From: Bacteroidia bacterium | GTDB lineage: Bacteria > Bacteroidota > Bacteroidia > M30B66 | NCBI GenBank assembly: GCA_965279035.1 | Contig: OZ257142.1 | Coordinates: forward strand, 3,424,001-3,488,000 | Length of the DNA stretch: 64,000 nt | Direction of reading: 5' to 3' | Part shown: piece by piece, positions 14,844-60,621 of the stretch | How positions within the stretch are numbered: position 1 is the first letter of the stretch | Layout: each line of letters opens with the position of its first letter | Made by a program: the position numbers and the translations under genes | The notes under the pieces: generated by a model | The model's input: the letters and a program-made list of their open reading frames with translations, nothing else | Told to the model about the DNA's origin: nothing | The model's database searches: none

Positions 14844-15863
14844 ATGTTTAAAGAAGAAAAAGTATCTATCAAAGCATACAATACATTCGGAATTGATGTG
14901 AGTTCAGATTGTTTTTCGATTGCTAAATCAGAAAACGATATTCATGAAGCATTAGCATTTCAGAATAAAAACAATCTTGCTTTATTGATCTTAGGCGGTG
15001 GTTCGAATATACTTTTTACTCGCAATGTTGAAGGACTTATTCTTCAAAATTCGTTAAAAGGAATTCGTTCAGAAATTCTCAATGATGATTCGATAATTGT
15101 AGAATCTGCAGCTGGTGAAAATTGGCACTCATTCGTTCAACATTGCATTGATCATAATTGGGGTGGATTAGAAAATCTATCATTAATTCCCGGAAATGTT
15201 GGTGCTTCACCCATGCAAAATATTGGCGCATATGGAGTGGAAATTAAAGATTCCTTTTATTCCCTTCGGGCGATGAAAATAGCTGATGGTAGCATACACG
15301 AATTTGATACTGCATCATGTAATTTTGGCTATCGGGAAAGTAGTTTCAAACGAGCATTGAAAGGACAATTCATCATCCTTTCGGTTCAATATAAATTGAG
15401 TAGAAGAAATCATGTGTTGAATACATCCTATGGAGCTATTTCACAAGAGATTGAAAAAATGTCGATTCAAAATCCGAGCATTCGAGATGTGAGTAATGCC
15501 GTAATAGCTATTCGTCGTTCTAAGCTTCCCAATCCTGCAGAAATTGGCAATGCAGGTAGCTTCTTCAAAAATCCAGTCGTTGAGAATTCACTACTTGAAA
15601 GCATTCGTTCAAATTATCCGAATGTTGTTGCTTATCCTGCCGGAGATAATCAATCTAAACTTGCAGCTGGCTGGCTCATTGAAACAGCTGGCTGGAAAGG
15701 ATATCGCCGCGCAGATGCAGGCGTCCACGCCTTTCAAGCACTCGTGCTCGTAAACTACGGCTCCGCTACTGGCGCACAAATCTGGCAACTATCTCAAGAT
15801 ATTGTCGACGATGTTCAATCTAAATTCGGTGTTGAACTCGAACGTGAGGTGAATGTGTATTGA
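14844..15863 (+). CDS. murB: UDP-N-acetylenolpyruvoylglucosamine reductase
   Basis: GGGSNILF, PMQNIGAYG, FGYRES, GNAGSFFKNP, LEREV. Confidence 0.97.
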   Translation: MFKEEKVSIKAYNTFGIDVSSDCFSIAKSENDIHEALAFQNKNNLALLILGGGSNILFTRNVEGLILQNSLKGIRSEILNDDSIIVESAAGENWHSFVQHCIDHNWGGLENLSLIPGNVGASPMQNIGAYGVEIKDSFYSLRAMKIADGSIHEFDTASCNFGYRESSFKRALKGQFIILSVQYKLSRRNHVLNTSYGAISQEIEKMSIQNPSIRDVSNAVIAIRRSKLPNPAEIGNAGSFFKNPVVENSLLESIRSNYPNVVAYPAGDNQSKLAAGWLIETAGWKGYRRADAGVHAFQALVLVNYGSATGAQIWQLSQDIVDDVQSKFGVELEREVNVY

Positions 15864-15998
15864 TGTGCTGGTGTGATGATGTGCTGGTGTGCTAGTGTTT
15901 TAATGTGCTGGTGTATTGGTTTGATTGGATCAGCACATCAACCAATCAGCACATCAACCAATCAGCACTTCAGCACATCAACTAATCAGCACACCATC
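15861..15998. repeat. Imperfect inverted array of short GTGCTG/CAGCAC units between convergent genes
   Basis: TGATGTGCTGGTGTG units followed by CAGCACATCAACCAAT units; related units at ~278-310 and ~23087-23131. Confidence 0.6.
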
Positions 15999-30625: not shown

Positions 30626-30835
30626 TTTTGTTATTAAAAACTAACAGAGAAGCTTTTGCTATAAATCTAGTGCAAAACAATCTGCTTTCCAATCAATTTT
30701 AAAAAAGGTGAACCTAAATTTATACCTGACAAATATAACAAGAAAAACAAAATACTTTAAACTTACAAAATGAATAAATCTTGAGATTATGCTCTAAATC
30801 ATAAGTGTTTTATTAATACTATCTTTTATAAAAAT

Positions 30836-31881: not shown

Positions 31882-33122
31882 TGTAAGCTCCCCCGAAAAT
31901 AGTACAGTTTGAAAAAAGAATTTCTAATTTTAAAACTGTAATATGAGAAAGACAAGATTCACCCCGACGCAGATTGCAAAGATCCTTAAAGAGTTTGAAC
32001 AAGGAAAAGATGTTGAAACAATTAGCAGAGAGCATGGAGTATCGAAGGCTACTTTTTACAAGTGGCGACAACGATACGGTGGCATGGAGGCTAGTGAGTT
32101 GAAGAATATAAAACGGCTAGAAGAGGAAAATGCAAAGTTAAAGCGCATGTATACAGATTTAGCTTTAGAGCTAGATATGGCAAAGTATATAATCGAAAAA
32201 AAGCTTTAAAGCCTTGCCACAAAAGAGCGATTGTAGAAGAGCTCAAGCATCATTATCCTCATGGCATAAGCAAGGCGTGTCGTATTTTACAAACAAGCAG
32301 GAGTAGTTTAAACTATCGTTCCCAAAAGGATGATTCGTTTTTAAATGATGCTTTAAGTAAACTAAGCATTGAACACCCCAGAGAAGGCTTTTGGAAGAGT
32401 TATTATCGTTTACGCAACAAGAGTGTCAAAGTAAACCACAAACGCCTCCACAGGGTTTATAAGCAAATGGGTCTACCATTAAGACGCAAGGCAAAAAAGC
32501 GTTTGCCAGCAAGAGTAAAAGAACAAATCGTAATACCAAGTGAATTTAACCATACTTGGAGTATTGATTTTGTACATGACGTTCTCAGCAATGGTCGCAA
32601 GTTCAGATCCTTTAATGTTATAGATGATTACAATCGTGAGGTATTATTTATCGAAACAGATTATTCATTAAAAAGTAGCAGAGTAATCTGGGTGCTAAAC
32701 CACCTAATCAATAAACATGGAAAACCTAAAAAAATACGAATGGATAACGGACCTGAATTTATCGCCAAGCTTTCGAAAGAATGGAGTGAAATAAAAGAAA
32801 TAGACTTTCATTACATACAGCCTGGAAAGCCAACACAAAATGCATTGATAGAAAGATTTAATAAAACCTTTAGAGGAGGAATCCTTGATAATTATATTTT
32901 TGAATCTCTCTATGAGGTAAGAAGCATCACTGAAACATGGATGCAAGACTACAATGAAGAAAGGCCACATGATGCTTTGGGTGGCTTAAGTCCAGTGATG
33001 TATAAACGTAAAAATCAGACTCTTCTTGGCCTCCGTTCCGCTACGCTTCACTCCAGCCAAGAAGAGTTAATCAATGATAATAAATTGTAATTTAGAACCG
33101 TACTAAAAATGGGGAGCCTACA
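31882..33122 (+). mobile_element. IS3-family insertion sequence (~1241 bp)
   Basis: TG...CA ends; imperfect IRs TGTAAGCTCCCC..TAGTACAGTT / AACCGTACTA..GGGGAGCCTACA; orfA/orfB; no target duplication visible. Confidence 0.9.
31943..33090 (+). CDS. IS3 transposase OrfA (31943-32209) / OrfB joined by -1 programmed frameshift
   Basis: HTH orfA; A7G slippery site at 32196-32203; [26 protein letters not shown]. Confidence 0.9.
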
Positions 33123-33358: not shown

Positions 33359-33484
33359 TAACGTTCCGCACACACCTGAAGAGCCAAATGAGGTGAACGG
33401 AATGCTTTAGATTAGACGAATATAACAAGAAAATCGAATGCCTCAAACTCCCGAAATGCTTGGCTTTGCTGGTGTGTGCTGTTA
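33359..33484 (-). repeat. attC-like site 1 (resident family, empty)
   Basis: TAAC-GTTCC-GCACACACC..AGCCAA...TTGGCT..GGTGTGTGC-T-GTTA; the PIN gene stop overlaps its GTTA. Confidence 0.9.
33417..33447 (-). promoter_or_regulatory. Putative Bacteroidetes promoter inside the attC-like loop (representative copy)
   Basis: Minus strand TTTG-N19-TATATTCG versus consensus TTTG-N19-21-TAnnTTTG. Confidence 0.6.
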
Positions 33485-33904
33485 GCGGATGTCACCTATC
33501 CGTAAATATGTTTCTGGAGTCATTACTGATAAACTACTTTCCTTAAAATCTTTAATGTTTCTTGTCACGATTACTTTAATCTCTTTGTCATATTGCGCTG
33601 AGAAATTCTGTATCGCATCTTCAAAATCCTTAAATTCAGAATTTAGAGCTGCTAATATCGTTTCTTTATTTATTATCGCAATATCAATCATATTAATTAA
33701 CATCTTCAGATTCTCAATGACCTTCTCGTGTTTCGCTGTCTTTCTCAAAAGATAATACACATTACTTATTATCACAGGTGTTACAAAACCTGATATAACT
33801 TTCTTTTCACATAACATCAATATTTTAGTGGCATCGTCCGAAAATGGTTTTCTGTCAAAAAAGAAGTCGAGTATTACATCTGTATCAATTAAAACTTTAT
33901 TCAT
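33482..33904 (-). CDS. PIN-domain toxin (VapC-like)
   Basis: LIDTDVILD, DFEDA, IVTRNxKDF. Confidence 0.9.
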   Translation of the reverse strand: MNKVLIDTDVILDFFFDRKPFSDDATKILMLCEKKVISGFVTPVIISNVYYLLRKTAKHEKVIENLKMLINMIDIAIINKETILAALNSEFKDFEDAIQNFSAQYDKEIKVIVTRNIKDFKESSLSVMTPETYLRIGDIR

Positions 33905-33906
33905 AC

Positions 33907-34164
33907 TTACAAATATTTTTTGGCAATTGCATCTGTAAGTTCTTTCTTGTAATCAAAATCTTTTGGTAATTTAAATGAACCTCGTAATTGCTTTACAGTT
34001 GGACTCAAATCTTTATCATCAATCTCCTTTTCATTAGTTAAAGCTTTAAGATAATTTTCTATTAGGTCAGACAGACTTCTTTCCCGTTCCCGCGCATATC
34101 TTTTAGCCTTCTCAATTATTGATTGCTCAATCGTAAGCGTTAGTTTCGTATTCATAACCTTCAT
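33907..34164 (-). CDS. Antitoxin, DUF6364-like ribbon-helix-helix
   Basis: TKLTLTI..IEKAKRYA..SLSDLIENYL; immediately upstream of the PIN gene. Confidence 0.8.
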   Translation of the reverse strand: MKVMNTKLTLTIEQSIIEKAKRYARERERSLSDLIENYLKALTNEKEIDDKDLSPTVKQLRGSFKLPKDFDYKKELTDAIAKKYL

Positions 34165-34267
34165 TTTTCACAAAAGTAATAAAATTTTCAATATACACGT
34201 GCAAATATATCCAAATGAATACGTGTCGTTTGTTGGTGATTTCCGCTAACCTTTAGACTTGCAGTCA

Positions 34268-34457
34268 AAGATTTTAGCTGATAAATTTACCATAAATAAA
34301 TGTAGTTAACCGAAAGCAGGGCGACCTATGCGCTAACAAGGATAATAGGCCTATGGAACGATATAGTGCCCTACTTTCTGGTTATTTAAGCCTCAGATAG
34401 ATATTCGGGATTCAGGCCCATTATAAAGGTTTTGAGGTACAAATAACCATTGGTTAA
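34268..34457 (+). ncRNA. Predicted IS110 bridge RNA (copy 1; 5' end approximate)
   Basis: Two stem-bounded internal loops. LTG CGCTAAC 34331-34337; RTG GGAACG(AT) 34355-34362; LDG ATAGATAT 34397-34404; RDG TAAAGG(TT) 34424-34431. Confidence 0.85.
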
Positions 34458-34480
34458 TCCGTTTTGCTAATTATAAAATT

Positions 34481-35494
34481 ATGAATTCAAACCAGAACAA
34501 CCAAAAACATTTTGTAGGAACAGATGTTTCAAAAGAAACACTTGATGTAACGATCTTTTTCAACTCCTCAATGCATTTTCATCAGCAATTTTCAAATGAC
34601 AGCAAGGGCTTTAAGCAATTGCTGAAATGGCTAGAAACCTATCCTGAATTCAGTTTTGAAAATACTTTATTCTGCATGGAACATACAGGAATTTACACTC
34701 GTCAGTTTGTTGAATTCCTCCTTTCGAAAGAAGCAAAGGTATGGATGGAGTCGGCACTGCATTTAAAGCGTTCTATGGGCATGACAAGGGGCAAAAGTGA
34801 TAAGATCGATTCACTGCGAATTGCACGCTATGCAATGACTCATCAGGACCAAGCCAGGCTCGTAAATCTTTCCAATAAAACATTGTTGCTTATCAAAGAC
34901 CTTATGAGTGCAAGAGAGCGGAGTAAAAAGGCCTACCAGTCCATAAAAGTCTCCATTGATGAAATGCAAAGAGTCGATGCAGCAACAGCAAAAGAGCTCT
35001 TGAGGATTAATAAACCAGCCCTTTCTGGATTATTGAAAAGCAAGATGGCGTTGGAAAAACGGATGATGGAATTAATAGCGATGGATCCTGAACTGAACGA
35101 GCTATTTGAGCTGGTTACTTCTGTCAAAGGTGTGGGTAATGTATTGGCAACCGAACTGATTGTTTATACACATGCATTTAAAAGAATGGATGAAGCCAAA
35201 CAACTGGCCTGCTATTGCGGAGTCGCTCCTTTTTCTCATACTTCCGGCACGAGTGTGCATGGAAGAAATGGAACTTCAAACTTTGCTAACATGGGACTTA
35301 AATCAACTTTACACTTGGCTGCACTTTCTTCAATTCGTTACGTACCTGAGCTTAAAACATATTATCAGAGGAAAGTAGCTGAGGGAAAATCCAAAATGAG
35401 CGTAATTAATGCCGTGCGGAATAAACTGTTGCAACGTGTCTTAGCAGTGGTAAAAAGAGGAACGCCTTACCAAGAAAATTATCAAGTAAATTAA
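34481..35494 (+). CDS. IS110-family DEDD recombinase
   Basis: GTDVSK, CMEHTG, KSDKIDS (DEDD RuvC-like); C-terminal YCGVAP..SGTS. Confidence 0.95.
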   Translation: MNSNQNNQKHFVGTDVSKETLDVTIFFNSSMHFHQQFSNDSKGFKQLLKWLETYPEFSFENTLFCMEHTGIYTRQFVEFLLSKEAKVWMESALHLKRSMGMTRGKSDKIDSLRIARYAMTHQDQARLVNLSNKTLLLIKDLMSARERSKKAYQSIKVSIDEMQRVDAATAKELLRINKPALSGLLKSKMALEKRMMELIAMDPELNELFELVTSVKGVGNVLATELIVYTHAFKRMDEAKQLACYCGVAPFSHTSGTSVHGRNGTSNFANMGLKSTLHLAALSSIRYVPELKTYYQRKVAEGKSKMSVINAVRNKLLQRVLAVVKRGTPYQENYQVN

Positions 35495-35514
35495 TTTGGA
35501 AAACTCATAGATAT

Positions 35515-35637
35515 CGTTCCGCACACACCTGAAGAGCCAAATGAGATGAACGAAATGCTTTATATTAGACGAATATAACAAGAAAAACGAATGCCTCATA
35601 CTCCCGAAATGCTTGGCTTTGCTGGTGTGTGCTGTTA
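35515..35637 (-). repeat. attC-like site 2 (resident family, interrupted by IS110)
   Basis: Same repeat as site 1; its TAAC lies at 34247-34250. Confidence 0.9.
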
Positions 35638-35645
35638 GCTGTAGT

Positions 35646-36287
35646 TTATTTATTACTCCAGAATTCTTCAGTTAAATAAAAAACAGTGTCAATAAAATAA
35701 AGGACATTATTTCTAGTCAACACATTTTCATCATGCAAATCTTCGAGTATAATTCCTAAATTTTGATTAAAGTAATCGTTGTTTCTAGTATTTTGAAATC
35801 CATTTGAAGTCAAAAACTCTTTTAATTGATTTAAATCTGTATTACTTGTTATTGTAACATATGATTGTTGAACAACAGCATAAAGAATTTCATTCTCCTT
35901 GGTAAATCCAAGCAATTCATATGCAGTATCTTCAAAAAAAAAATTATGAATCAACAAATTATAAAAGTAATCTCTCCAACTGCTATAATAAATTCCATCA
36001 TTTAACTTTAAAACATGATCAGAGTTTTTGAGATACACTCTTTGCTCTGCTCCTTCACTTACATACTGAGTAAAATCAATATCAGATATCCAAAGCTTAT
36101 TTTCTGAAACAAAGATTTCTAATCTCTTTGCTTCTTGTTCTTTGAATTGCTTTGAGTTTTCAATTTTTGAGCCTGGTTGCGAGCCTTTGCTAAGGTAACT
36201 GGCGACTGATTGGATAGTTGTTCCAAACCTAACTTGGCTCTTTCCTGAAATGACATCATAAAGTTCTTGTTTAAGTTGGTCTTGCAT
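35646..36287 (-). CDS. Protein kinase-like protein (polyvalent-protein kinase type)
   Basis: EGAEQRVY, VLKLN, DLHDENVL, FIDT kinase-fold motifs. Confidence 0.65.
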   Translation of the reverse strand: MQDQLKQELYDVISGKSQVRFGTTIQSVASYLSKGSQPGSKIENSKQFKEQEAKRLEIFVSENKLWISDIDFTQYVSEGAEQRVYLKNSDHVLKLNDGIYYSSWRDYFYNLLIHNFFFEDTAYELLGFTKENEILYAVVQQSYVTITSNTDLNQLKEFLTSNGFQNTRNNDYFNQNLGIILEDLHDENVLTRNNVLYFIDTVFYLTEEFWSNK

Positions 36288-36356
36288 TAAAGCAAAGATA
36301 AGAAATGATTTTATAAGTCGGAATGCTTGTTTATCAGCGATTTACTAAATTACAGC

Positions 36357-36482
36357 TAACGTTTCGGGGGTTTGCGATGGCGGGGAGTTTTAGCACTAAA
36401 CTTCATTCGGAGAACTGAACTTCCACTAACCACAAATGTGTCTGCGAAGCACGGAACCCCCGCTATCGCAAACCCCATGTTA
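36357..36482 (-). repeat. attC-like site 3 (divergent family)
   Basis: TAAC..GGGGTTTGCGATGGCGGGG...CCCCGCTATCGCAAACCCC..GTTA. Confidence 0.9.
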
Positions 36483-36586
36483 GCGGATGCCCTTCTTCCC
36501 ATTCCACGAAGGTATGCACTTTATTTTGTCGCACAATTGTCTGATTAAATTTTTTGTCGTCAAAAGTTGTCAGCAAGTAACCACAC

Positions 36587-36872: not shown

Positions 36873-37739
36873 TTAGTTAACCGTTGTCCAGTTGTAGATG
36901 CCGCCTCTTGAAACAAACTTTGAAAAGTCGTAGCTCATTTGCTGAATAGCAAGTCTTGCCCCGATGTCTAAAATTGGTTTGCTGTAAATGTGTCCGCCTG
37001 TTGTGTTGTCGTAAAACCTGCCTGCTGGGTCAACCATAGCATAAGAACCAGTCATTTGATTGTTGTTCTCGGGAACTATGCTTGTAATGTCCAGAAGTCC
37101 TTTGTGGTTATCAATAAAAAATTGAAATTGCTCGTTTGTGATTTTGAATTTGTCAATGTTCAAATCGTTCTGTCCTTTCATTGGCAAAACTTGGAATAGT
37201 TTCCATCGTTTTGGTTTTGCATAACGGATAAACTCGCTCAAGTTTTCGTTGCAGTTCTTGCTACTTACAACTGTATTTATTTTTAGTCCATAACCGTGTT
37301 CTTTTATTCTGTCAACAAGCGAAGTGTAGTAGTCAATTTGTAAAGGTGTCTTGCCCGAAATTGCTCTGCCGGTTTCAATGTTTGTGTTAGCGTTTAAACT
37401 GTCAATGCTTACGGAAATCCAGTCAAGGTGCTGCTGATTAGCTTGCAAAAAACTGTCAGTAAGTTTACTGCCGTTGCTCACAATCATTGTTGTAAGTCCT
37501 GCTTGCTTGGCGGTTGTAATTAAATCGGGAAGCCAAGGGCAAAGAGTTGGTTCGCCTCCTGCGAAAGTGATTTTCTCAAAGCCAATTTCAGCAAGATGAA
37601 GGACTACTTCAATTGCTTGTTCTTTTGGTAAATGTCCTTTTGGTAAAATGCTTTGCTTAACATCTTGAAAGGTTGCGAAGCAAAACTTGCAACGCATGTT
37701 GCATGGCTCCCATAAATGAAAATTGACTGCTGGAATCAT
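36873..37739 (-). CDS. pVip: Prokaryotic viperin (radical SAM antiviral nucleotide dehydratase)
   Basis: VNFHLWEPCNMRCKFCFATF, KITFAGGEPTL, KINTVV, RWKLFQVL, SYAMVDPAGRF, RGGxYxW. Confidence 0.92.
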   Translation of the reverse strand: MIPAVNFHLWEPCNMRCKFCFATFQDVKQSILPKGHLPKEQAIEVVLHLAEIGFEKITFAGGEPTLCPWLPDLITTAKQAGLTTMIVSNGSKLTDSFLQANQQHLDWISVSIDSLNANTNIETGRAISGKTPLQIDYYTSLVDRIKEHGYGLKINTVVSSKNCNENLSEFIRYAKPKRWKLFQVLPMKGQNDLNIDKFKITNEQFQFFIDNHKGLLDITSIVPENNNQMTGSYAMVDPAGRFYDNTTGGHIYSKPILDIGARLAIQQMSYDFSKFVSRGGIYNWTTVN

Positions 37740-37821
37740 TTGTGTGTTTTTTAGTTTAACGACACAAATATTCAGCGACTTTTTAGGTCAGATTCTATTT
37801 GGAAAATAGAAACTTATTGAA

Positions 37822-37850
37822 AGTAATGAGTTGGCTTTTTTGAGTAATGA
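37822..37850 (-). promoter_or_regulatory. Candidate LytTR operator upstream of viperin
   Basis: Direct repeat AGTAATGA at 37822 and 37843 (21-bp period). Confidence 0.5.
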
Positions 37851-37856
37851 AATAGG

Positions 37857-38597
37857 TCAAGGCATCCGAAAATTCTCTGAGGTTTTTAAAAGTTTTGTTT
37901 CAATTTTTCCATTTTGGTTCATCACTTCAACTTCAATCTCACGACTTCCTTTCTTTCTTGGTTTAACATGCTTTTCGTTCACCACAACACCTCTGATAAT
38001 TTCCAAAAACTTTTGTTTGCTAAATCCTTTCTCGTGCATTTTAGCTATTGTAAAATCAATAAGTATTTCTGGTTTTCGGTCTATGAAGTAAATGATTTTG
38101 TTGTTTGATTCCGCACCATTTGCCTTGTCTGAACATAGATAAACTATAGTGTCAACCACTATTTTATTTTTTTTGCTCTCTGCAAAATCAAGGTTAATGT
38201 ATTTGGAAGTTATTTCTTCTCTCACTTCGTTGAGAAACTTTGTCGCCTTTTTAAGAAACTCCTTTTCCGTAAATGGTTTTGTAATGTGGTCAACAATTAA
38301 ATCAAATTCGCTTTCCAATTTTTCAATCTCTTTCAAATTCGCTGCGTTGTGTCCGCTAACAAACAATACTGGAAGTTTAAGTTTGTAAGCTACCTCTAAA
38401 CCATTCATGTTACTGCCACCGCCTAAATCAATGTCAAGAAGCAAAGCGTCAGCTTTGCTTGTTTTTTCATTGTTTAAAAAGTCGGTGGAGTTTGTTGCGA
38501 AAGCAACAACTTCAACTAACTCTGTCGCTTCCAAATTTTGTTTATGGTCTTTCAGTAGCGAAGGATTGTCTTCTAAAATTGCAACTTTAAGTTTCAT
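37857..38597 (-). CDS. LytTR-type response regulator
   Basis: Receiver domain VAILED, LLDIDL, ITKPF; degenerate LytTR C-terminus; start MKLKV overlaps the kinase stop (TAATG). Confidence 0.8.
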   Translation of the reverse strand: MKLKVAILEDNPSLLKDHKQNLEATELVEVVAFATNSTDFLNNEKTSKADALLLDIDLGGGSNMNGLEVAYKLKLPVLFVSGHNAANLKEIEKLESEFDLIVDHITKPFTEKEFLKKATKFLNEVREEITSKYINLDFAESKKNKIVVDTIVYLCSDKANGAESNNKIIYFIDRKPEILIDFTIAKMHEKGFSKQKFLEIIRGVVVNEKHVKPRKKGSREIEVEVMNQNGKIETKLLKTSENFRMP

Positions 38598-39310
38598 TAA
38601 AAGCGAATGATTAAAGTTGAAATATACTGTTGCTCGTTGCAACTATTTTTAAGGTCAAATTTTCCTGTCAGCAGAAGGTCTAATCGTTTTCTCATGTTGC
38701 TCAATCCAATTCCGCCTTTCGTTTCTCTTGGGTTTGGAATAATTCTGTTTACCACATTCAATTCAAAAGTTGTGTCCGAAAGTTTGAGTGTGATTTTCAA
38801 AAACTCTGGATGGTTTCTATCTCCGTGTTTGAAAGCGTTCTCAACGAAGTAAGCCGTTATCAGGTGAGGAACGCAAGCCGTTGTAAAAAATTTTGAGTTT
38901 GTATTCACTTGCGACTTGTCAATTTTTATGCTGTCAATTTGATAAACAAAATTTCCTTGAAGTGCTTTATACTTTTCAAGAAAGTTCAACTCCTCTTGAA
39001 TACTTACAAGATGTTTGTTGCCGTGATATAAAATGTAGTCAAGCGTTTCAGCAAGCGATTCAGAACCTTTGTAAAGATTTTTGGCTGCAACATTAAGCGT
39101 TGAAACCATGTTGCGTAGAGTGTGAGGTTGCAACTGAAATTTCAAATGCTCTGCCTCAAGTAAAGCGTTGTCGGCAATGAGTTTTGCGTTTTCCCTTGCA
39201 AGTTTGTCCCGCTGCTTTTTCTCTGCTTTCAGTTTGGAGTAAAGCCAAATACTGAGAACAATGAAAACTACAATTATGAAAATTAGTCCTTCGTTATCTT
39301 CCATTGTCAA
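38597..39310 (-). CDS. LytS-type histidine kinase with one TM and no obvious sensor domain
   Basis: LKFQLQPHTLRN, ENAFKHG, GGIGLSNMRKRL. Confidence 0.85.
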   Translation of the reverse strand: MTMEDNEGLIFIIVVFIVLSIWLYSKLKAEKKQRDKLARENAKLIADNALLEAEHLKFQLQPHTLRNMVSTLNVAAKNLYKGSESLAETLDYILYHGNKHLVSIQEELNFLEKYKALQGNFVYQIDSIKIDKSQVNTNSKFFTTACVPHLITAYFVENAFKHGDRNHPEFLKITLKLSDTTFELNVVNRIIPNPRETKGGIGLSNMRKRLDLLLTGKFDLKNSCNEQQYISTLIIRF

Positions 39311-39380: not shown

Positions 39381-40645
39381 CTTTAGACTTGCAGTCAAAG
39401 ATTTTAGCTGATAAATTTACCATAAATAAATGTAGTTAACCGAAAGCAGGGCGACCTATGCGCTAACAAGGATAATAGGCCTATGGAACGATATAGTGCC
39501 CTACTTTCTGGTTATTTAAGCCTCAGATAGATATTCGGGATTCAGGCCCATTATAAAGGTTTTGAGGTACAAATAACCATTGGTTAATCCGTTTTGCTAA
39601 TTATAAAATTATGAATTCAAACCAGAACAACCAAAAACATTTTGTAGGAACAGATGTTTCAAAAGAAACACTTGATGTAACGATCTTTTTCAACTCCTCA
39701 ATGCATTTTCATCAGCAATTTTCAAATGACAGCAAGGGCTTTAAGCAATTGCTGAAATGGCTAGAAACCTATCCTGAATTCAGTTTTGAAAATACTTTAT
39801 TCTGCATGGAACATACAGGAATTTACACTCGTCAGTTTGTTGAATTCCTCCTTTCGAAAGAAGCAAAGGTATGGATGGAGTCGGCACTGCATTTAAAGCG
39901 TTCTATGGGCATGACAAGGGGCAAAAGTGATAAGATCGATTCACTGCGAATTGCACGCTATGCAATGACTCATCAGGACCAAGCCAGGCTCGTAAATCTT
40001 TCCAATAAAACATTGTTGCTTATCAAAGACCTTATGAGTGCAAGAGAGCGGAGTAAAAAGGCCTACCAGTCCATAAAAGTCTCCATTGATGAAATGCAAA
40101 GAGTCGATGCAGCAACAGCAAAAGAGCTCTTGAGGATTAATAAACCAGCCCTTTCTGGATTATTGAAAAGCAAGATGGCGTTGGAAAAACGGATGATGGA
40201 ATTAATAGCGATGGATCCTGAACTGAACGAGCTATTTGAGCTGGTTACTTCTGTCAAAGGTGTGGGTAATGTATTGGCAACCGAACTGATTGTTTATACA
40301 CATGCATTTAAAAGAATGGATGAAGCCAAACAACTGGCCTGCTATTGCGGAGTCGCTCCTTTTTCTCATACTTCCGGCACGAGTGTGCATGGAAGAAATG
40401 GAACTTCAAACTTTGCTAACATGGGACTTAAATCAACTTTACACTTGGCTGCACTTTCTTCAATTCGTTACGTACCTGAGCTTAAAACATATTATCAGAG
40501 GAAAGTAGCTGAGGGAAAATCCAAAATGAGCGTAATTAATGCCGTGCGGAATAAACTGTTGCAACGTGTCTTAGCAGTGGTAAAAAGAGGAACGCCTTAC
40601 CAAGAAAATTATCAAGTAAATTAATTTGGAAAACTCATAGATATC
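39381..40645 (+). mobile_element. IS110 copy 2 in attC-like site 4 (bridge RNA ~39398-39587)
   Basis: Same ends and junctions as copy 1. Confidence 0.95.
39611..40624 (+). CDS. IS110 recombinase
   Basis: Identical translation to copy 1. Confidence 0.95.
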   Translation: MNSNQNNQKHFVGTDVSKETLDVTIFFNSSMHFHQQFSNDSKGFKQLLKWLETYPEFSFENTLFCMEHTGIYTRQFVEFLLSKEAKVWMESALHLKRSMGMTRGKSDKIDSLRIARYAMTHQDQARLVNLSNKTLLLIKDLMSARERSKKAYQSIKVSIDEMQRVDAATAKELLRINKPALSGLLKSKMALEKRMMELIAMDPELNELFELVTSVKGVGNVLATELIVYTHAFKRMDEAKQLACYCGVAPFSHTSGTSVHGRNGTSNFANMGLKSTLHLAALSSIRYVPELKTYYQRKVAEGKSKMSVINAVRNKLLQRVLAVVKRGTPYQENYQVN

Positions 40646-41454: not shown

Positions 41455-41579
41455 TAACGGTCCGGCGATTTGCGAATGCGCGGAACAGTTTACCCAAATG
41501 TATCAAAACAAACGAAATGTTTCAATCAGAAAAATGACTTATAGAACGAAAATGCCCGCGTATCGCAGATTGCCTGTTA
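41455..41579 (-). repeat. attC-like site 5 (divergent)
   Basis: TAAC-GGTCC-GGCGATTTGCGA...TCGCAGATTGCC-T-GTTA. Confidence 0.88.
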
Positions 41580-41960
41580 TTTGATGCGCGCCAAGTCCGA
41601 TTCAGTTCTAGCAAAGTTTCCAAGCAAAAAAAGCGACTTGAATACACATTCTGAAATAAGGCCAAAAACCATTCTGCAAATATTCTGTGTTTGTCGCCAT
41701 CAATTCTCTAGTTGATTTCATCAATCCATTAATTTGATTTTATCAGCAGTTCATTCCAGGCATATGGCGACAAACTTTTCAAAAACCTCTCAAATGGTTT
41801 TTGCCTATCCCTCAAATGCCGAGCTTTTTTTATCAAAAACGATTAGACATTCGTTTATTACTTTATTGTTTCCTGATAGCCGAAACTTCCTTTCGCCTTT
41901 AATGAATTATCTGACCACAATGCGAATGGCGAGTTTGGAAAATTTCGCGTTTCAAATAAC
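41576..41960. other. Non-coding structured cassette, copy A
   Basis: Ends GTTATTTGA/TCAAATAAC; no self-contained ORF >=60 aa; nested inverted repeats. Confidence 0.75.
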
Positions 41961-42082
41961 GTTCCGCACACACCTGAAGAGCCAAACGACGTGAACGGAT
42001 AGCTTTAGATTAGACGAATATAACAAGAAAAACGAATGCCTCAAACTCCCGAAATGCTTGGCTTTGCTGGTGTGTGCTGTTA
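41957..42082 (-). repeat. attC-like site 6 (resident family, empty)
   Basis: Same repeat as site 1. Confidence 0.9.
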
Positions 42083-42131
42083 GCGGATCGCCCGGCACTC
42101 ACATTTTCGCAGTTGTGAAGTCGAACTGAAC

Positions 42132-42663: not shown

Positions 42664-43928
42664 CTTTAGACTTGCAGTCAAAGATTTTAGCTGATAAATT
42701 TACCATAAATAAATGTAGTTAACCGAAAGCAGGGCGACCTATGCGCTAACAAGGATAATAGGCCTATGGAACGATATAGTGCCCTACTTTCTGGTTATTT
42801 AAGCCTCAGATAGATATTCGGGATTCAGGCCCATTATAAAGGTTTTGAGGTACAAATAACCATTGGTTAATCCGTTTTGCTAATTATAAAATTATGAATT
42901 CAAACCAGAACAACCAAAAACATTTTGTAGGAACAGATGTTTCAAAAGAAACACTTGATGTAACGATCTTTTTCAACTCCTCAATGCATTTTCATCAGCA
43001 ATTTTCAAATGACAGCAAGGGCTTTAAGCAATTGCTGAAATGGCTAGAAACCTATCCTGAATTCAGTTTTGAAAATACTTTATTCTGCATGGAACATACA
43101 GGAATTTACACTCGTCAGTTTGTTGAATTCCTCCTTTCGAAAGAAGCAAAGGTATGGATGGAGTCGGCACTGCATTTAAAGCGTTCTATGGGCATGACAA
43201 GGGGCAAAAGTGATAAGATCGATTCACTGCGAATTGCACGCTATGCAATGACTCATCAGGACCAAGCCAGGCTCGTAAATCTTTCCAATAAAACATTGTT
43301 GCTTATCAAAGACCTTATGAGTGCAAGAGAGCGGAGTAAAAAGGCCTACCAGTCCATAAAAGTCTCCATTGATGAAATGCAAAGAGTCGATGCAGCAACA
43401 GCAAAAGAGCTCTTGAGGATTAATAAACCAGCCCTTTCTGGATTATTGAAAAGCAAGATGGCGTTGGAAAAACGGATGATGGAATTAATAGCGATGGATC
43501 CTGAACTGAACGAGCTATTTGAGCTGGTTACTTCTGTCAAAGGTGTGGGTAATGTATTGGCAACCGAACTGATTGTTTATACACATGCATTTAAAAGAAT
43601 GGATGAAGCCAAACAACTGGCCTGCTATTGCGGAGTCGCTCCTTTTTCTCATACTTCCGGCACGAGTGTGCATGGAAGAAATGGAACTTCAAACTTTGCT
43701 AACATGGGACTTAAATCAACTTTACACTTGGCTGCACTTTCTTCAATTCGTTACGTACCTGAGCTTAAAACATATTATCAGAGGAAAGTAGCTGAGGGAA
43801 AATCCAAAATGAGCGTAATTAATGCCGTGCGGAATAAACTGTTGCAACGTGTCTTAGCAGTGGTAAAAAGAGGAACGCCTTACCAAGAAAATTATCAAGT
43901 AAATTAATTTGGAAAACTCATAGATATC
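42664..43928 (+). mobile_element. IS110 copy 3 in attC-like site 7 (bridge RNA ~42681-42870)
   Basis: Same ends and junctions as copy 1. Confidence 0.95.
42894..43907 (+). CDS. IS110 recombinase
   Basis: Identical translation to copy 1. Confidence 0.95.
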   Translation: MNSNQNNQKHFVGTDVSKETLDVTIFFNSSMHFHQQFSNDSKGFKQLLKWLETYPEFSFENTLFCMEHTGIYTRQFVEFLLSKEAKVWMESALHLKRSMGMTRGKSDKIDSLRIARYAMTHQDQARLVNLSNKTLLLIKDLMSARERSKKAYQSIKVSIDEMQRVDAATAKELLRINKPALSGLLKSKMALEKRMMELIAMDPELNELFELVTSVKGVGNVLATELIVYTHAFKRMDEAKQLACYCGVAPFSHTSGTSVHGRNGTSNFANMGLKSTLHLAALSSIRYVPELKTYYQRKVAEGKSKMSVINAVRNKLLQRVLAVVKRGTPYQENYQVN

Positions 43929-46892: not shown

Positions 46893-47019
46893 TAACGCTC
46901 CGCGTGCAACTCGAGGTTTGGGAATTGGTGAACTGAATGCTTTAGATTAGACGAATATAGCAAGAAAATTGAAATGTTTTAACCAAGCAAAATGCCCAAA
47001 TCTTGAGTGCACGCTGTTA
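46893..47019 (-). repeat. attC-like site 9 (variant stem, resident-type loop)
   Basis: TAAC-GCTCC-GCGTGCAACTCGAGGTTTGGG...CCCAAATCTTGAGTGCACGC-T-GTTA. Confidence 0.9.
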
Positions 47020-47400
47020 TTTGATGCGCGCCAAGTCCGATTCAGTTCCAGCAAACTTTCCAAGCAAAAAAAGCGACTTGAATACACATTCTGAAATAAG
47101 GCCAAAAACCATTCATCAAATTATCAATGTTTGTCGCCATCAATTCTCAAGTTGATTTCATCAATCCATTAACTTGATTTCATCTACAGTTCATTCCAGG
47201 CATATGGCGACAAACTTTTCAAAAACCTCTCAAATGGTTTTTGCCTTTCCCTCAAATGCCGAGCTTTTTTTATCAAAAACGATTAGACATTCGTTTATTA
47301 CTTTATTCTTTCCTGATAGCCGAAACTTCCTTTCGCCTTTAATGAATTATCTGACAATAATGCGAATGGCGTGTTTGGAAAATTTCGCGTTTCAAATAAC
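47016..47400. other. Non-coding structured cassette, copy B
   Basis: Near-identical to 41576-41960. Confidence 0.75.
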
Positions 47401-47522
47401 GTTCCGCACACACCTGAAGAGCCAAACGAGGTAAACGAAATGCTTTAGATTAGACGAATATAACAAGAAAAACGGATGCCTCAAACTCCCGAAATGCTTG
47501 GCTTTGCTGGTGTGTGCTGTTA
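47397..47522 (-). repeat. attC-like site 10 (resident family, empty)
   Basis: Same repeat as site 1. Confidence 0.9.
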
Positions 47523-47602
47523 GCCACTGGCACATGTTAAACTACAGAATAACTTATTTAAATGGAAATTATATATAAGATTTAAATTTATTTCAATCAA
47601 GT

Positions 47603-49170: not shown

Positions 49171-50435
49171 CTTTAGACTTGCAGTCAAAGATTTTAGCTG
49201 ATAAATTTACCATAAATAAATGTAGTTAACCGAAAGCAGGGCGACCTATGCGCTAACAAGGATAATAGGCCTATGGAACGATATAGTGCCCTACTTTCTG
49301 GTTATTTAAGCCTCAGATAGATATTCGGGATTCAGGCCCATTATAAAGGTTTTGAGGTACAAATAACCATTGGTTAATCCGTTTTGCTAATTATAAAATT
49401 ATGAATTCAAACCAGAACAACCAAAAACATTTTGTAGGAACAGATGTTTCAAAAGAAACACTTGATGTAACGATCTTTTTCAACTCCTCAATGCATTTTC
49501 ATCAGCAATTTTCAAATGACAGCAAGGGCTTTAAGCAATTGCTGAAATGGCTAGAAACCTATCCTGAATTCAGTTTTGAAAATACTTTATTCTGCATGGA
49601 ACATACAGGAATTTACACTCGTCAGTTTGTTGAATTCCTCCTTTCGAAAGAAGCAAAGGTATGGATGGAGTCGGCACTGCATTTAAAGCGTTCTATGGGC
49701 ATGACAAGGGGCAAAAGTGATAAGATCGATTCACTGCGAATTGCACGCTATGCAATGACTCATCAGGACCAAGCCAGGCTCGTAAATCTTTCCAATAAAA
49801 CATTGTTGCTTATCAAAGACCTTATGAGTGCAAGAGAGCGGAGTAAAAAGGCCTACCAGTCCATAAAAGTCTCCATTGATGAAATGCAAAGAGTCGATGC
49901 AGCAACAGCAAAAGAGCTCTTGAGGATTAATAAACCAGCCCTTTCTGGATTATTGAAAAGCAAGATGGCGTTGGAAAAACGGATGATGGAATTAATAGCG
50001 ATGGATCCTGAACTGAACGAGCTATTTGAGCTGGTTACTTCTGTCAAAGGTGTGGGTAATGTATTGGCAACCGAACTGATTGTTTATACACATGCATTTA
50101 AAAGAATGGATGAAGCCAAACAACTGGCCTGCTATTGCGGAGTCGCTCCTTTTTCTCATACTTCCGGCACGAGTGTGCATGGAAGAAATGGAACTTCAAA
50201 CTTTGCTAACATGGGACTTAAATCAACTTTACACTTGGCTGCACTTTCTTCAATTCGTTACGTACCTGAGCTTAAAACATATTATCAGAGGAAAGTAGCT
50301 GAGGGAAAATCCAAAATGAGCGTAATTAATGCCGTGCGGAATAAACTGTTGCAACGTGTCTTAGCAGTGGTAAAAAGAGGAACGCCTTACCAAGAAAATT
50401 ATCAAGTAAATTAATTTGGAAAACTCATAGATATC
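49171..50435 (+). mobile_element. IS110 copy 4 in attC-like site 11 (bridge RNA ~49188-49377)
   Basis: Same ends; target GGCTAAC|GTTTCG. Confidence 0.95.
49401..50414 (+). CDS. IS110 recombinase
   Basis: Identical translation to copy 1. Confidence 0.95.
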   Translation: MNSNQNNQKHFVGTDVSKETLDVTIFFNSSMHFHQQFSNDSKGFKQLLKWLETYPEFSFENTLFCMEHTGIYTRQFVEFLLSKEAKVWMESALHLKRSMGMTRGKSDKIDSLRIARYAMTHQDQARLVNLSNKTLLLIKDLMSARERSKKAYQSIKVSIDEMQRVDAATAKELLRINKPALSGLLKSKMALEKRMMELIAMDPELNELFELVTSVKGVGNVLATELIVYTHAFKRMDEAKQLACYCGVAPFSHTSGTSVHGRNGTSNFANMGLKSTLHLAALSSIRYVPELKTYYQRKVAEGKSKMSVINAVRNKLLQRVLAVVKRGTPYQENYQVN

Positions 50436-54317: not shown

Positions 54318-55582
54318 CTTTAGACTTGCAGTCAAAGATTTTAGCTGATAAATTTACCATAAATAAATGTAGTTAACCGAAAGCAGGGCGACCTATGCGC
54401 TAACAAGGATAATAGGCCTATGGAACGATATAGTGCCCTACTTTCTGGTTATTTAAGCCTCAGATAGATATTCGGGATTCAGGCCCATTATAAAGGTTTT
54501 GAGGTACAAATAACCATTGGTTAATCCGTTTTGCTAATTATAAAATTATGAATTCAAACCAGAACAACCAAAAACATTTTGTAGGAACAGATGTTTCAAA
54601 AGAAACACTTGATGTAACGATCTTTTTCAACTCCTCAATGCATTTTCATCAGCAATTTTCAAATGACAGCAAGGGCTTTAAGCAATTGCTGAAATGGCTA
54701 GAAACCTATCCTGAATTCAGTTTTGAAAATACTTTATTCTGCATGGAACATACAGGAATTTACACTCGTCAGTTTGTTGAATTCCTCCTTTCGAAAGAAG
54801 CAAAGGTATGGATGGAGTCGGCACTGCATTTAAAGCGTTCTATGGGCATGACAAGGGGCAAAAGTGATAAGATCGATTCACTGCGAATTGCACGCTATGC
54901 AATGACTCATCAGGACCAAGCCAGGCTCGTAAATCTTTCCAATAAAACATTGTTGCTTATCAAAGACCTTATGAGTGCAAGAGAGCGGAGTAAAAAGGCC
55001 TACCAGTCCATAAAAGTCTCCATTGATGAAATGCAAAGAGTCGATGCAGCAACAGCAAAAGAGCTCTTGAGGATTAATAAACCAGCCCTTTCTGGATTAT
55101 TGAAAAGCAAGATGGCGTTGGAAAAACGGATGATGGAATTAATAGCGATGGATCCTGAACTGAACGAGCTATTTGAGCTGGTTACTTCTGTCAAAGGTGT
55201 GGGTAATGTATTGGCAACCGAACTGATTGTTTATACACATGCATTTAAAAGAATGGATGAAGCCAAACAACTGGCCTGCTATTGCGGAGTCGCTCCTTTT
55301 TCTCATACTTCCGGCACGAGTGTGCATGGAAGAAATGGAACTTCAAACTTTGCTAACATGGGACTTAAATCAACTTTACACTTGGCTGCACTTTCTTCAA
55401 TTCGTTACGTACCTGAGCTTAAAACATATTATCAGAGGAAAGTAGCTGAGGGAAAATCCAAAATGAGCGTAATTAATGCCGTGCGGAATAAACTGTTGCA
55501 ACGTGTCTTAGCAGTGGTAAAAAGAGGAACGCCTTACCAAGAAAATTATCAAGTAAATTAATTTGGAAAACTCATAGATATC
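54318..55582 (+). mobile_element. IS110 copy 5 in attC-like site 13 (bridge RNA ~54335-54524)
   Basis: Same ends; target GTATAAC|GTTCCG. Confidence 0.95.
54548..55561 (+). CDS. IS110 recombinase
   Basis: Identical translation to copy 1. Confidence 0.95.
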   Translation: MNSNQNNQKHFVGTDVSKETLDVTIFFNSSMHFHQQFSNDSKGFKQLLKWLETYPEFSFENTLFCMEHTGIYTRQFVEFLLSKEAKVWMESALHLKRSMGMTRGKSDKIDSLRIARYAMTHQDQARLVNLSNKTLLLIKDLMSARERSKKAYQSIKVSIDEMQRVDAATAKELLRINKPALSGLLKSKMALEKRMMELIAMDPELNELFELVTSVKGVGNVLATELIVYTHAFKRMDEAKQLACYCGVAPFSHTSGTSVHGRNGTSNFANMGLKSTLHLAALSSIRYVPELKTYYQRKVAEGKSKMSVINAVRNKLLQRVLAVVKRGTPYQENYQVN

Positions 55583-59700: not shown

Positions 59701-60621
59701 AGATTGGTCGGGAATTCTATGTAAAACATCTTCTGTATTTAATGCTTCTATAGTTGCTTCAAAAAGTGAAGCTAGGTTCCGGTTTTCTTTTTTACGCCTA
59801 ATTATATTCCTACCACCTTCCTTAACTTCTTCAAGTCCGATTATGTGAAGTAGTTCTCTATAGAACTTTTCGTTAAGAGAGTTACTATCGTTTGGTGTTG
59901 CTACTTTTAATAAGTGTGTTGGTGAAAGAATTTTGAATAATGCAATTAATTCTTTGTCGTCCTCTTTATTGTTGTTTCTTAAAACCTTATCATATTCTCT
60001 GATGTCGAAGTAAACACAAGGTATTTCAACTTCAATTTTGGCAACTATTTTGGCTATTTCTTCATAAAAAAACGGGTTATCTTTTTTGTCGTTGAGTTTG
60101 GTTTCGTATAGTTTTTTTATTTGTGTATTTCGGTAAATATGTTTGTCGAAATAATTTGCGTCAATAATAAACCATTGGTTTACATTGGTCATTACCAACT
60201 GTTTTAGTTGGTTGTTTCCTGCTTGGTTTCTCTCGTCTAAGTAATAAAGTATAAGTTCGTGAAGTGCTTTTTTGTTAGGGTTGTCAGCCGTTACCATTTC
60301 ACCAATATTGGTAGGCCGTTTGGCTTCTATAATTACTCCAACCTCGCTGTCAGTTGTCTTGCCGAGATGAATTACAAGGTCTTTTTTGTCTTTGGTGTTG
60401 ATTGCGTTGGTGTCACGATAGTATGTGTCCCGCAGAAAGTCACGTAAGTCGTTTTTTAAATGTTCTTCACTTTCGTCTTTAGGTCGTTTTTCTATAACGC
60501 TGATTTTGTCGAGTAAAGCAATGAGGTTTGTTTTAAAAACGTCAATTTCGCTTCTCAAAGGTTTTTGCTTTAAGAAGGCTTTTAGTGCTTTTTTCGGTGT
60601 TTGCGTTATTAGTTTCATCAA
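56753..60621 (-). pseudogene. Type IIG (Eco57I-like) fused restriction-modification enzyme with an in-frame stop and a frameshift
   Basis: IIEAK, ICDPAVGSGHFL, IIGNPPY; in-frame TAA at 57304-57306; frameshift near 56866 before IDQLVYKLYDITPEE tail. Confidence 0.85.

Follow-up and report, generated by a model that had tools for sequence, protein, structure and literature searches.

A stretch of 64,000 nucleotides (nt) from a Bacteroidia bacterium (contig OZ257142.1, positions 3,424,001 to 3,488,000; hereafter the window, whose coordinates are used throughout unless a locus is named) carries six copies of an IS110-family insertion sequence (IS), each lodged in a site of a long, integron-like cassette array. 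We conclude that this element is very probably an IS110-group IS with a left-end bridge RNA aimed at the cassette recombination sites of its host. The copies, the parts of the first of them and the site that it interrupts are:

34251-35515, plus strand: IS copy 1, 1265 bp (no mismatch among the six copies along the whole 1265 bp; one C at empty sites)
39381-40645, plus strand: IS copy 2, identical over its full length
42664-43928, plus strand: IS copy 3, identical over its full length
49171-50435, plus strand: IS copy 4; right flank GTTTC, one mismatch to the right target guide (RTG) described below
54318-55582, plus strand: IS copy 5; left box CGTATAAC, matching the left target guide (LTG) at only 4 of 8 positions
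60870-62134, plus strand: IS copy 6, identical over its full length
34243-34250, plus strand: left half of the interrupted cassette site, box CCGCTAAC
34481-35494, plus strand: recombinase gene, IS110-family DEDD/Ser, 337 amino acids (Pfam domains; alignment to IS621, PDB 8wt6)
35495-35515, plus strand: short right end of 21 nt, terminus CATAGATAT-C
35516-35640, plus strand: remainder of the interrupted site on the right: the spacer GTTCC, an imperfect palindrome whose centre is conserved, and ..GCTGTTAGC

All six copies are 100% identical, share one orientation (+) and occupy the same point of an attC-like repeat of ~125 nt, which at each copy reads ..YTAAC, then the element, then GTTCCGCACACACC.. 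Because six identical copies lie within about 28 kb, the element looks recently active; the cluster of proteins identical to its recombinase has 28 members, all on one 4.2-Mb contig. One base at the ends is ambiguous: positions 34250 and 35515 are both C, and empty copies of the repeat carry one C there; therefore a single C is common to the joined ends of the element and to its target. Apart from this ambiguity the limits 34251-35515 given in an initial annotation of the stretch are correct. The single C is all that donor (..TAT-C-CTTTAG) and target (TAA-C-G..) have in common, in all six copies and across the clade. The non-coding ends measure 230 nt on the left, upstream of the gene, and 21 nt on the right. 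A long non-coding end upstream of the gene is the arrangement described for the IS110 group, the reverse holding for IS1111 (PMC11208160, PMC11187229).

The recombinase matches PF01548 (DEDD_Tnp_IS110; 68.5 bits) and PF02371 (Transposase_20; 70.5 bits). Its residues D15, E67, D107, D110 and S255-G256 align with the catalytic residues of IS621 (PDB 8wt6; 95.8 bits, E = 2.7e-26) as these are named in PMC11208158, and the same DEDD and Ser-Gly residues are invariant in our protein alignment (A1). Both domains and the alignment with IS621 uphold the initial annotation, which had recognised an IS110-type recombinase. Among the candidates scored, 4728 homologues were found at E <= 0.001, and in a plasmid collection the nearest relative was 41% identical and annotated merely as an IS110 family transposase.

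The left end holds the following RNA features:

34302-34461, plus strand: bridge RNA core, an outer stem closing target-binding and donor-binding loops (covariance model 180.9 bits, fold, covariation)
34312-34378, plus strand: target-binding loop, with the LTG GCGCUAAC at 34330-34337, the RTG GGAACG at 34355-34360 and handshake bases AU at 34361-34362
34380-34448, plus strand: donor-binding loop, with the left donor guide (LDG) AUAGAUAU(U) at 34397-34405, the right donor guide (RDG) UAAAGG at 34424-34429 and handshake bases UU at 34430-34431

When folded with RNAfold, the segment 34241-34480 forms an outer stem UUAACC/GGUUAA around two internal-loop hairpins (-60.8 kcal/mol), with a z-score of -3.19 and none of 200 shuffles as stable. 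All eight stems that had been named from the letters do pair: TTAACC/GGTTAA, GAAAG/CTTTC, AGGGC/GCCCT, CTAT/ATAG, AGG/CCT, GGTTATTT/AAATAACC, CCTCA/TGAGG and GGG/CCC. Within the target-binding loop, CGCTAAC (34331-34337) equals the left flank (34244-34250) and GGAACG (34355-34360) is the reverse complement of CGTTCC (35515-35520); within the donor-binding loop, ATAGATAT (34397-34404) equals the right end of the element (35507-35514) and TAAAGG (34424-34429) is the reverse complement of CCTTTA (34250-34255). When the left-end interior was dinucleotide-shuffled 20,000 times, these strings arose singly 119, 405, 414 and 3687 times; at least two occurred together in 197 of the 20,000 and all four in none. 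The left guides (LTG, LDG) have the sequence of the top strand and therefore pair with the bottom one, the right guides (RTG, RDG) are the complement of the top strand, and the core position falls in all four. In addition, the bases following the right guides, AU after the RTG and UU after the RDG, agree with the product junctions AT-C-GTTCC and AA-C-CTTTA, in the manner of the handshake guides described for IS621 (PMC11208158). This strand pattern is the one published for IS621 (PMC11208160). The initial annotation, which had proposed a two-loop fold closed by TTAACC/GGTTAA, four guide matches and an IS621-type bispecific logic, is thus borne out on each of these points. A scan of 33500-36500 against Rfam at E <= 1 returned no family.

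Relatives were collected by scanning species-representative genomes, and the best 80 of 332 confirmed loci were retained, 79 of which are labelled Bacteroidota (the other, L062, is labelled Candidatus Nomurabacteria). A covariance model (R1) built with a hand-set structure from eight sequences, those of the window and seven close loci, and applied at E <= 0.01, matches six places in the window and 75 more, spread over 74 of the 80 loci (81 in total), all of them on the strand of the recombinase gene and directly upstream of it. In the six loci where R1 found no match (L024, L042, L050, L054, L066 and L073), the upstream region is replaced, short or truncated. Covariation was measured on an alignment of 67 distinct rows (A4) built by fitting to the model. 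Pairing cells made up 86.2% of that alignment, against 59.3% in shuffles, and 39 of 39 stem pairs show changes on both sides; because the rows are fitted to the model, these pair counts lean towards the structure, a bias that controls with slid partners carry equally. The covariation score was 0.601, against 0.175 in shuffles (0 of 500 reached it) and 0.055-0.13 with slid partners. Covariation among homologues, which had been named among the checks to make, is therefore strongly positive, and the guides also track their DNA, as follows. An earlier run of RNAalifold on a MAFFT alignment of 24 diverse sequences gave only seven pairs, because the variable stems were misaligned, and was replaced by the model from eight close sequences.

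Guide columns were taken from the RNA alignment and flanks from the loci, giving 80 distinct rows, 68 of which have both a right flank and a 17-nt guide region. In these 68 the RTG matches its own right flank at six of six positions in 36 rows, at five in 24, at four in 4, at three in 2, at two in 1 and at one in 1; the mean match is 5.31 for cognate pairs and 2.61 for 2108 non-cognate pairs. An exact flank was found for 20 of the 32 distinct RTGs, and none of 20,000 permutations over distinct guides did as well. On the left side, the LTG matches its flank at a mean of 5.8 of 8 positions against 4.6 (65 rows; permutation 0/20,000), and in 17 rows with other LTGs the flanks differ correspondingly, for example TATAACACCAAC in L063 (12 nt) and TGCGCACAAC in L058 (10 nt). 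Of 35 distinct pairs, 29 have the octamer of their own right end within the LDG, versus 5 of 280 non-cognate ones, and the handshake bases on the RTG side agree with the right end in 30 of 41 pairs. Distant relatives, whose targets are quite unlike those of the window copies, have the same ends and the same one-base overlap.

The LTG GCTAAC, which fits the conserved ..AAC box of cassette sites, is retained by almost every relative with a protein identity of about 50% or higher (L014, L049, L058 and L059 are the exceptions), and the RTG of these GCTAAC-guide elements varies host by host. In the 48 scored insertions of such elements the left flank ends in AAC without exception, with T before it in 38 and C or A one position further in 42. 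The 1-nt shared core (C) of the initial annotation thus holds at the crossover in all six window copies and is in keeping with the AAC of all 48 flanks; the proposal of a Bacteroidetes bridge recombinase specialised on an integron-like site is supported. Forty-four GCTAAC-guide sites have 120 nt of flank or more; in 24 of them an inverted-repeat arm and then GTT were detected, a pattern seen in 1 of 17 sites of elements with another LTG and in 3% of shuffles. The detector is crude and misses sites visible by eye, such as L043, L017 and L004. The sites in Hymenobacteraceae, of ~55-65 nt, have the look of textbook attC (for instance L020, ..CCGCTAAC|GTCTAGTGCATGAG...CTTATGCACAATGTTAGCGG). Some guide-matched insertions (for example L008, L026 and L044) show no detected hairpin, which argues that sequence, not shape, is recognised. 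Insertions are antisense to the cassette open reading frames (ORFs) in all six window copies and also in L089, L090 and L091.

Evidence bearing on expression comes from the left end and from public sequencing runs. A candidate promoter precedes the RNA:

34259-34289, plus strand: candidate Bacteroidota-type RNA promoter, TTG (34259-34261), 20-nt spacer, TAAATTTA (34282-34289), read against the consensus TAnnTTTG

The Bacteroidetes consensus is given in PMC7366714 as TAnnTTTG at -7 with TTTG near -33. In the close group, TA(A/C/T)ATTT(G/A) ends 10-20 nt before the start of the RNA model in all 12 upstream rows, with TTG ~20 nt further upstream, and we think that the bridge RNA is probably made from this internal promoter. 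By eye, a second promoter can be predicted across the junction of the joined ends, with TTTG in the right end, a 20-nt spacer and TAGACTTG in the left end. Four sequencing runs were compared, as contigs, with 34151-35610. An isolate-like run (X1) contains the element with several different left flanks; a lake metagenome (X5) yields a contig with 1197 aligned bases and 19 differences, none of them in the LTG or RTG; and an RNA-library run (X19) covers the 3' end of the gene, the right end and a flank starting CGTTCCGC. In a lake metatranscriptome (X20), one 151-nt contig falls exactly on 34300-34450, and it carries an A>C change at 34357 that makes the RTG GGCACG and would retarget this guide to CGTGCC, or may be an error at a depth of 2.3. 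As evidence for a discrete RNA, or for guides that vary in nature, this contig is no more than a weak hint.

The array that receives the element, and those of its cassette contents that look defence-like, are:

30640-64000, minus strand: cassette array with 16 attC-like sites and a decayed one at about 30640-30810, extending past the right end of the window
57304-60621, minus strand: Eco57I/MmeI-type enzyme, 1105 amino acids, DUF7149 and DUF7814, defence-like
36873-39310, minus strand: radical-SAM protein adjoining a histidine kinase and a response regulator, defence-like
35646-36287, minus strand: Kinase-PolyVal protein, defence-like

The minus strand carries almost all of the cassette ORFs; a segment holds between 0 and 5 ORFs, co-oriented, with their stop codons a few bases from a site. 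The stems of the sites differ in sequence yet pair (GCACACACC../..GGTGTGTGC, GCGTGCAACTCGAGG../..CTTGAGTGCACGC, GCAGCTATCGGC../..GCCGATAGCTGC), and the boxes TAAC and GTTA stay fixed while the stems covary. Unique segments are flanked by complementary boxes of 7-9 nt, as in GTTAGCGGA ... TCCGCTAAC, G|TTAGCGGA ... TCCGCTAAC and G|TTATACGC ... GCGTATAAC; eight segments were read from their site ends, and three more are accounted for by internal sites. The array thus has the imperfect palindromic sites, RYYYAAC/GTTRRRY boxes and complementary cassette ends of an integron. The site arms carry spacers of 5 nt on one side and 1 nt on the other, and the site centre ..GCTTTAGATTAGACGAATATAACAAGAAAAACGAA.. 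is conserved even between sites with quite different stems (33395-33461 and 11 more copies; remnant at 30719-30751). The centres of attC sites are normally variable, and a conserved centre is unusual. Scored over 14 positions, the guide match is 11.83 for occupied sites versus 10.3 for empty ones (exact permutation 183/8008, p = 0.023), and all three 13/14 sites are occupied. Other cassette contents are a PIN toxin with its partner, a methyltransferase and two proteins with type IX secretion sorting domains; the latter, and the Bacteroidota label of 79 of the 80 related loci, agree with the Bacteroidetes host that had been named before the source was known.

Three further observations concern this part of the genome. 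The unit 41574-42084 recurs at 47014-47524 (95% identical) and comprises a 378-nt segment in which no ORF is convincing, together with the site to the right of that segment; the sites left of the two copies differ, which conflicts with the cassette orientation inferred from the ORFs. In the last cassette region (31943-33090), two plus-strand ORFs of 88 and 207 amino acids resemble, by eye, the halves of an IS3-family transposase. Outside the array, tandem 8-nt units (GTGCTGGT-like) occupy intergenic positions 258-318 and 15843-15927.

No recombinase gene of the array lies within the window, and the array continues past its right end. In each of five related genomes even the best match to TIGR02249, the integron-integrase model, scores below the cut-off; in three of them (G002, G003, G004) that match lies about 1-10 kb from a copy of the element. 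The array-linked proteins score 219-227 bits against NF040815 (XerA / integron integrase; cut-off 220) and 192-199 bits against TIGR02249 (cut-off 265), the latter in two pieces that skip model positions 179-239, which we take to be the IntI-specific domain. They likewise match the PDB structure of IntI4 (2a3v) in two stretches. A search with one of them returned homologues of 46-49% identity in four further genomes, and in two of these (G008, G009) the gene lies 3-7 kb from an element. The same recombinase family stands at one array end, in one fixed geometry, in five of the nine related genomes searched. ORF maps of G002, G003 and G004 place its gene at the array head, running in the direction of the cassette ORFs; relative to the element the gene lies on the right-end side and on the other strand, and the coordinates of G008 and G009 agree with this side and strand. 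Tyrosine recombinases head attC-like arrays in Cytophagales and Hymenobacteraceae genomes (L081:1210-2187, minus; L083:1135-2304, plus; also L092-L095 and L097); their nearest models are XerA/IntI, they have no IntI-specific insert, and they are co-directional with the cassettes. Such recombinase-headed arrays may represent an unrecognised integron-like system in Bacteroidota. As the array-linked recombinases of relatives have no IntI-specific insert, "integron-like", the term used in the initial annotation for the site, is the right wording, and we apply it to the array.

One related genome bears on where that recombinase acts. In G003, the stop codon of the recombinase gene is followed by a perfect hairpin with a 12-bp stem (GTTATGTTGCAC / GTGCAACATAAC), a 5-nt spacer and G|TTGTC (L089:2497-2545), a candidate attI-like primary site. 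The cassette start G|TTGTCATG occurs twice in this genome, once beside the recombinase gene and once after an ordinary site (..CCTGGCC G|TTGTCATG..); therefore the homology breaks (G|TT) at the box where the element inserts, within one base. Besides this breakpoint, ORF direction, the abutment of stop codons, the decayed terminal site at ~30.64-30.81 kb and the polarity of the recombinase in five genomes point to insertion at the G|TT crossover box. Two observations point the other way: the duplicated unit 41574-42084 = 47014-47524 has its limits at the other box, and the arm with extra bases lies where the canonical attC top strand has it (PMC5027507). On balance, we consider it likely that the insertion point of the element is the crossover point of the array's own tyrosine recombinase.

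Taken together, these data suggest a mechanism modelled on IS621, in which the DEDD/Ser recombinase and its RNA would join an excised circle to the site at a single C. The LTG GCGCUAAC would read the ..GCTAAC box at one end of the cassette sites, and the RTG GGAACG would pair with the C and the neighbouring 5-nt spacer GTTCC. The guides of the donor-binding loop would read the joined ends of the element (..ATAGATAT-C-CTTTA..), the predicted circle junction being ..CATAGATAT-C-CTTTAGAC.., and the two-base handshakes after the right guides would fit the product junctions. Insertion would leave the element antisense to the cassette genes, most probably at the crossover point of the tyrosine recombinase of the array.

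Several results weigh against this proposal or parts of it. The overlap is a single base, unlike the CT dinucleotide of IS621. The RTG matches at four or fewer of six positions in 8 of the 68 sites, and the RDG, which is full in the window, covers the core and 4 nt in only 17 of 39 pairs across relatives. Within the array, two sites matching at 12/14 are empty, and one matching at 10/14 (54317) is occupied. The promoter motif, kept only in the close group, is present family-wide in 22 of the 72 regions upstream, and in 14% of shuffled ones. The X20 contig could be DNA and is not from the source organism, and no circle-junction joint was seen in the contigs of the four runs, contigs being unable to show absence. 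The lean of the pair counts in A4 belongs here too.

Part of this evidence could be accommodated by other explanations. A real bridge RNA might be aimed at a REP-like (repetitive extragenic palindromic) repeat that is not a cassette site, in an array that is not integron-like. Consistent with this are the window's lack of a recombinase gene, the missing IntI-specific insert in the array-linked recombinases of relatives, arm spacers of 5 nt and 1 nt where the canonical attC has 5-6 nt on each (PMC5027507), the site centre, whose conservation is unusual for attC, and reports of other IS110 members in REP sequences (PMC12288879; 10.64898/2026.03.19.712850). It is nevertheless unlikely, given unique segments bounded by complementary 7-9-nt boxes, site stems that covary around fixed TAAC/GTTA boxes, segments whose ORFs (0 to 5) run in one direction and end with a stop codon next to a site, one recombinase family at the array end in fixed geometry in five of nine related genomes, and the cassette start of G003, duplicated beside the recombinase gene and beside a site with its breakpoint at G|TT.

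Alternatively, the site could be recognised by protein or through DNA structure, with its hairpin read as in IS200/IS605 or by integron integrases and the guide matches left as functionless remnants. The palindromic targets, with an inverted-repeat arm and GTT at 24 of 44 GCTAAC-guide sites, and the fact that the RNA is known here from sequence alone, would suit such a scheme. We regard it as very improbable: the RTG changes with the flank over 32 distinct guides, the LTGs of distant relatives follow quite different flanks, sequence-matched copies occur where no hairpin is detectable (for example L008, L026 and L044), and the stems of the RNA covary. Still less credible is that the element, placed as it is at a cassette boundary, was moved as a passenger or pseudo-cassette by the tyrosine recombinase of the array. 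Although its insertion point lies within one base of the G|TT box where the G003 duplication breaks, it contains no attC-like site, it supplies both recombinase and guides itself, its relatives insert outside arrays at guide-matched sequences, and the same ends and one-base overlap go with quite different targets in distant relatives. Insertion of an IS110-group element by its own bridge RNA at cassette sites is therefore the explanation that we adopt.

A wider proposal can be put forward tentatively. It is possible, though we would not call it probable, that the window samples a Bacteroidota-wide IS110 clade in which the LTG is fixed on the invariant GCTAAC/AAC box, only the 5-nt right guide is retuned for each host, and the single-base core lies at the crossover nucleotide of the array recombinase, the arrays being a largely unrecognised integron-like system run by an Xer/IntI-related recombinase without the IntI insert. 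Whatever its extent, the family offers a natural multi-genome display of bridge-RNA programming, one guide held constant on a conserved box and the other rewritten per host, with 32 natural right-guide/target pairs available. The copies fill 6 of the 16 scored sites and probably disable them while supplying homology for rearrangements, so the element may shape the evolution of the cassette array. The single-base core, if real, bears on the minimal overlap in bridge recombination and thus on design rules for genome editing. The survey also brings to light integron-like arrays in Cytophagales, Hymenobacteraceae and relatives; few Bacteroidetes integrons appear in the IntegronFinder 2.0 preprint, which mentions earlier In0 elements only and one complete integron (Salinibacter ruber).

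Compared with integrons as described in PMC5027507, PMC8876359 and the IntegronFinder 2.0 preprint, the arrays share co-oriented cassettes, RYYYAAC/GTTRRRY-like boxes, complementary cassette ends, imperfect palindromes of 60-230 nt whose structure is conserved more than their sequence, and a tyrosine recombinase gene at one array end. They differ in that the linked recombinase lacks the IntI-specific insert and is co-directional with the cassettes, and in that the sites have 5-nt and 1-nt arm spacers, against the 5-6 nt on each arm of the canonical attC (PMC5027507), and a centre conserved in this genome.

Among bridge-RNA systems the closest counterpart is IS621 of the IS110 group (Durrant et al. 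2024, PMC11208160; Hiraizumi et al. 2024, PMC11208158). As described there, both have a DEDD RuvC-like domain and a Tnp domain with catalytic Ser-Gly, an RNA in the long left end with two internal loops, the same LTG/RTG and LDG/RDG strand logic with the core in all four pairings, and two-base handshake guides 3' of the RTG and RDG that fit the product junctions. Unlike IS621, to which its protein similarity is low (95.8 bits), our element shares one base, C, with its target where IS621 shares the core dinucleotide CT; its LDG has U opposite the core position; in its close group an outer stem closes both loops; its promoter appears to lie within the left end and to be of the Bacteroidota type; and its target is a cassette recombination site. 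The element has every IS110-group feature of protein, end layout, RNA fold and guides that we tested, and departs from the group in the dinucleotide core; for production of the RNA there is the weak hint of the X20 contig, and for a circular form no joint was seen in the contigs of the four runs.

In function the element resembles the IS1111-attC group (ISPa21, ISPst6, ISKpn4, ISPa25), RNA-guided DEDD elements that occupy one end of cassette sites in one orientation, antisense; the likeness is functional only. Targeting of proteobacterial attC sites by IS1111-group elements, invoked in the initial annotation, is documented for ISKpn4 and ISPst6, which use a seekRNA (Siddiquee et al. 2024, PMC11187229), and IS1111-attC elements are reported near the 5' end of attC, antisense to cassette transcription (PMC3001079). 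In that group the seekRNA lies in a long right end, downstream of the gene, subterminal inverted repeats are present and the hosts' integrons are proteobacterial (PMC11187229). Our element departs from this arrangement: it belongs to the IS110 group, its RNA model matches upstream of the gene, its right end has 21 nt, its host is a member of Bacteroidota and, if ORFs orient the site, it sits at the site end distal to the preceding ORF. Among the titles and opening lines of abstracts returned by our literature searches, none describes an IS110-group element aimed at attC sites or Bacteroidota arrays; such cases may be contained in the tables across ISfinder published by Durrant et al. and by Siddiquee et al. 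RNA-guided attC targeting is already known for IS1111, and what is new here is therefore an IS110-group variant and not a new kind of system; the IS110 group appears to have reached the niche of the IS1111-attC elements independently, in another phylum.

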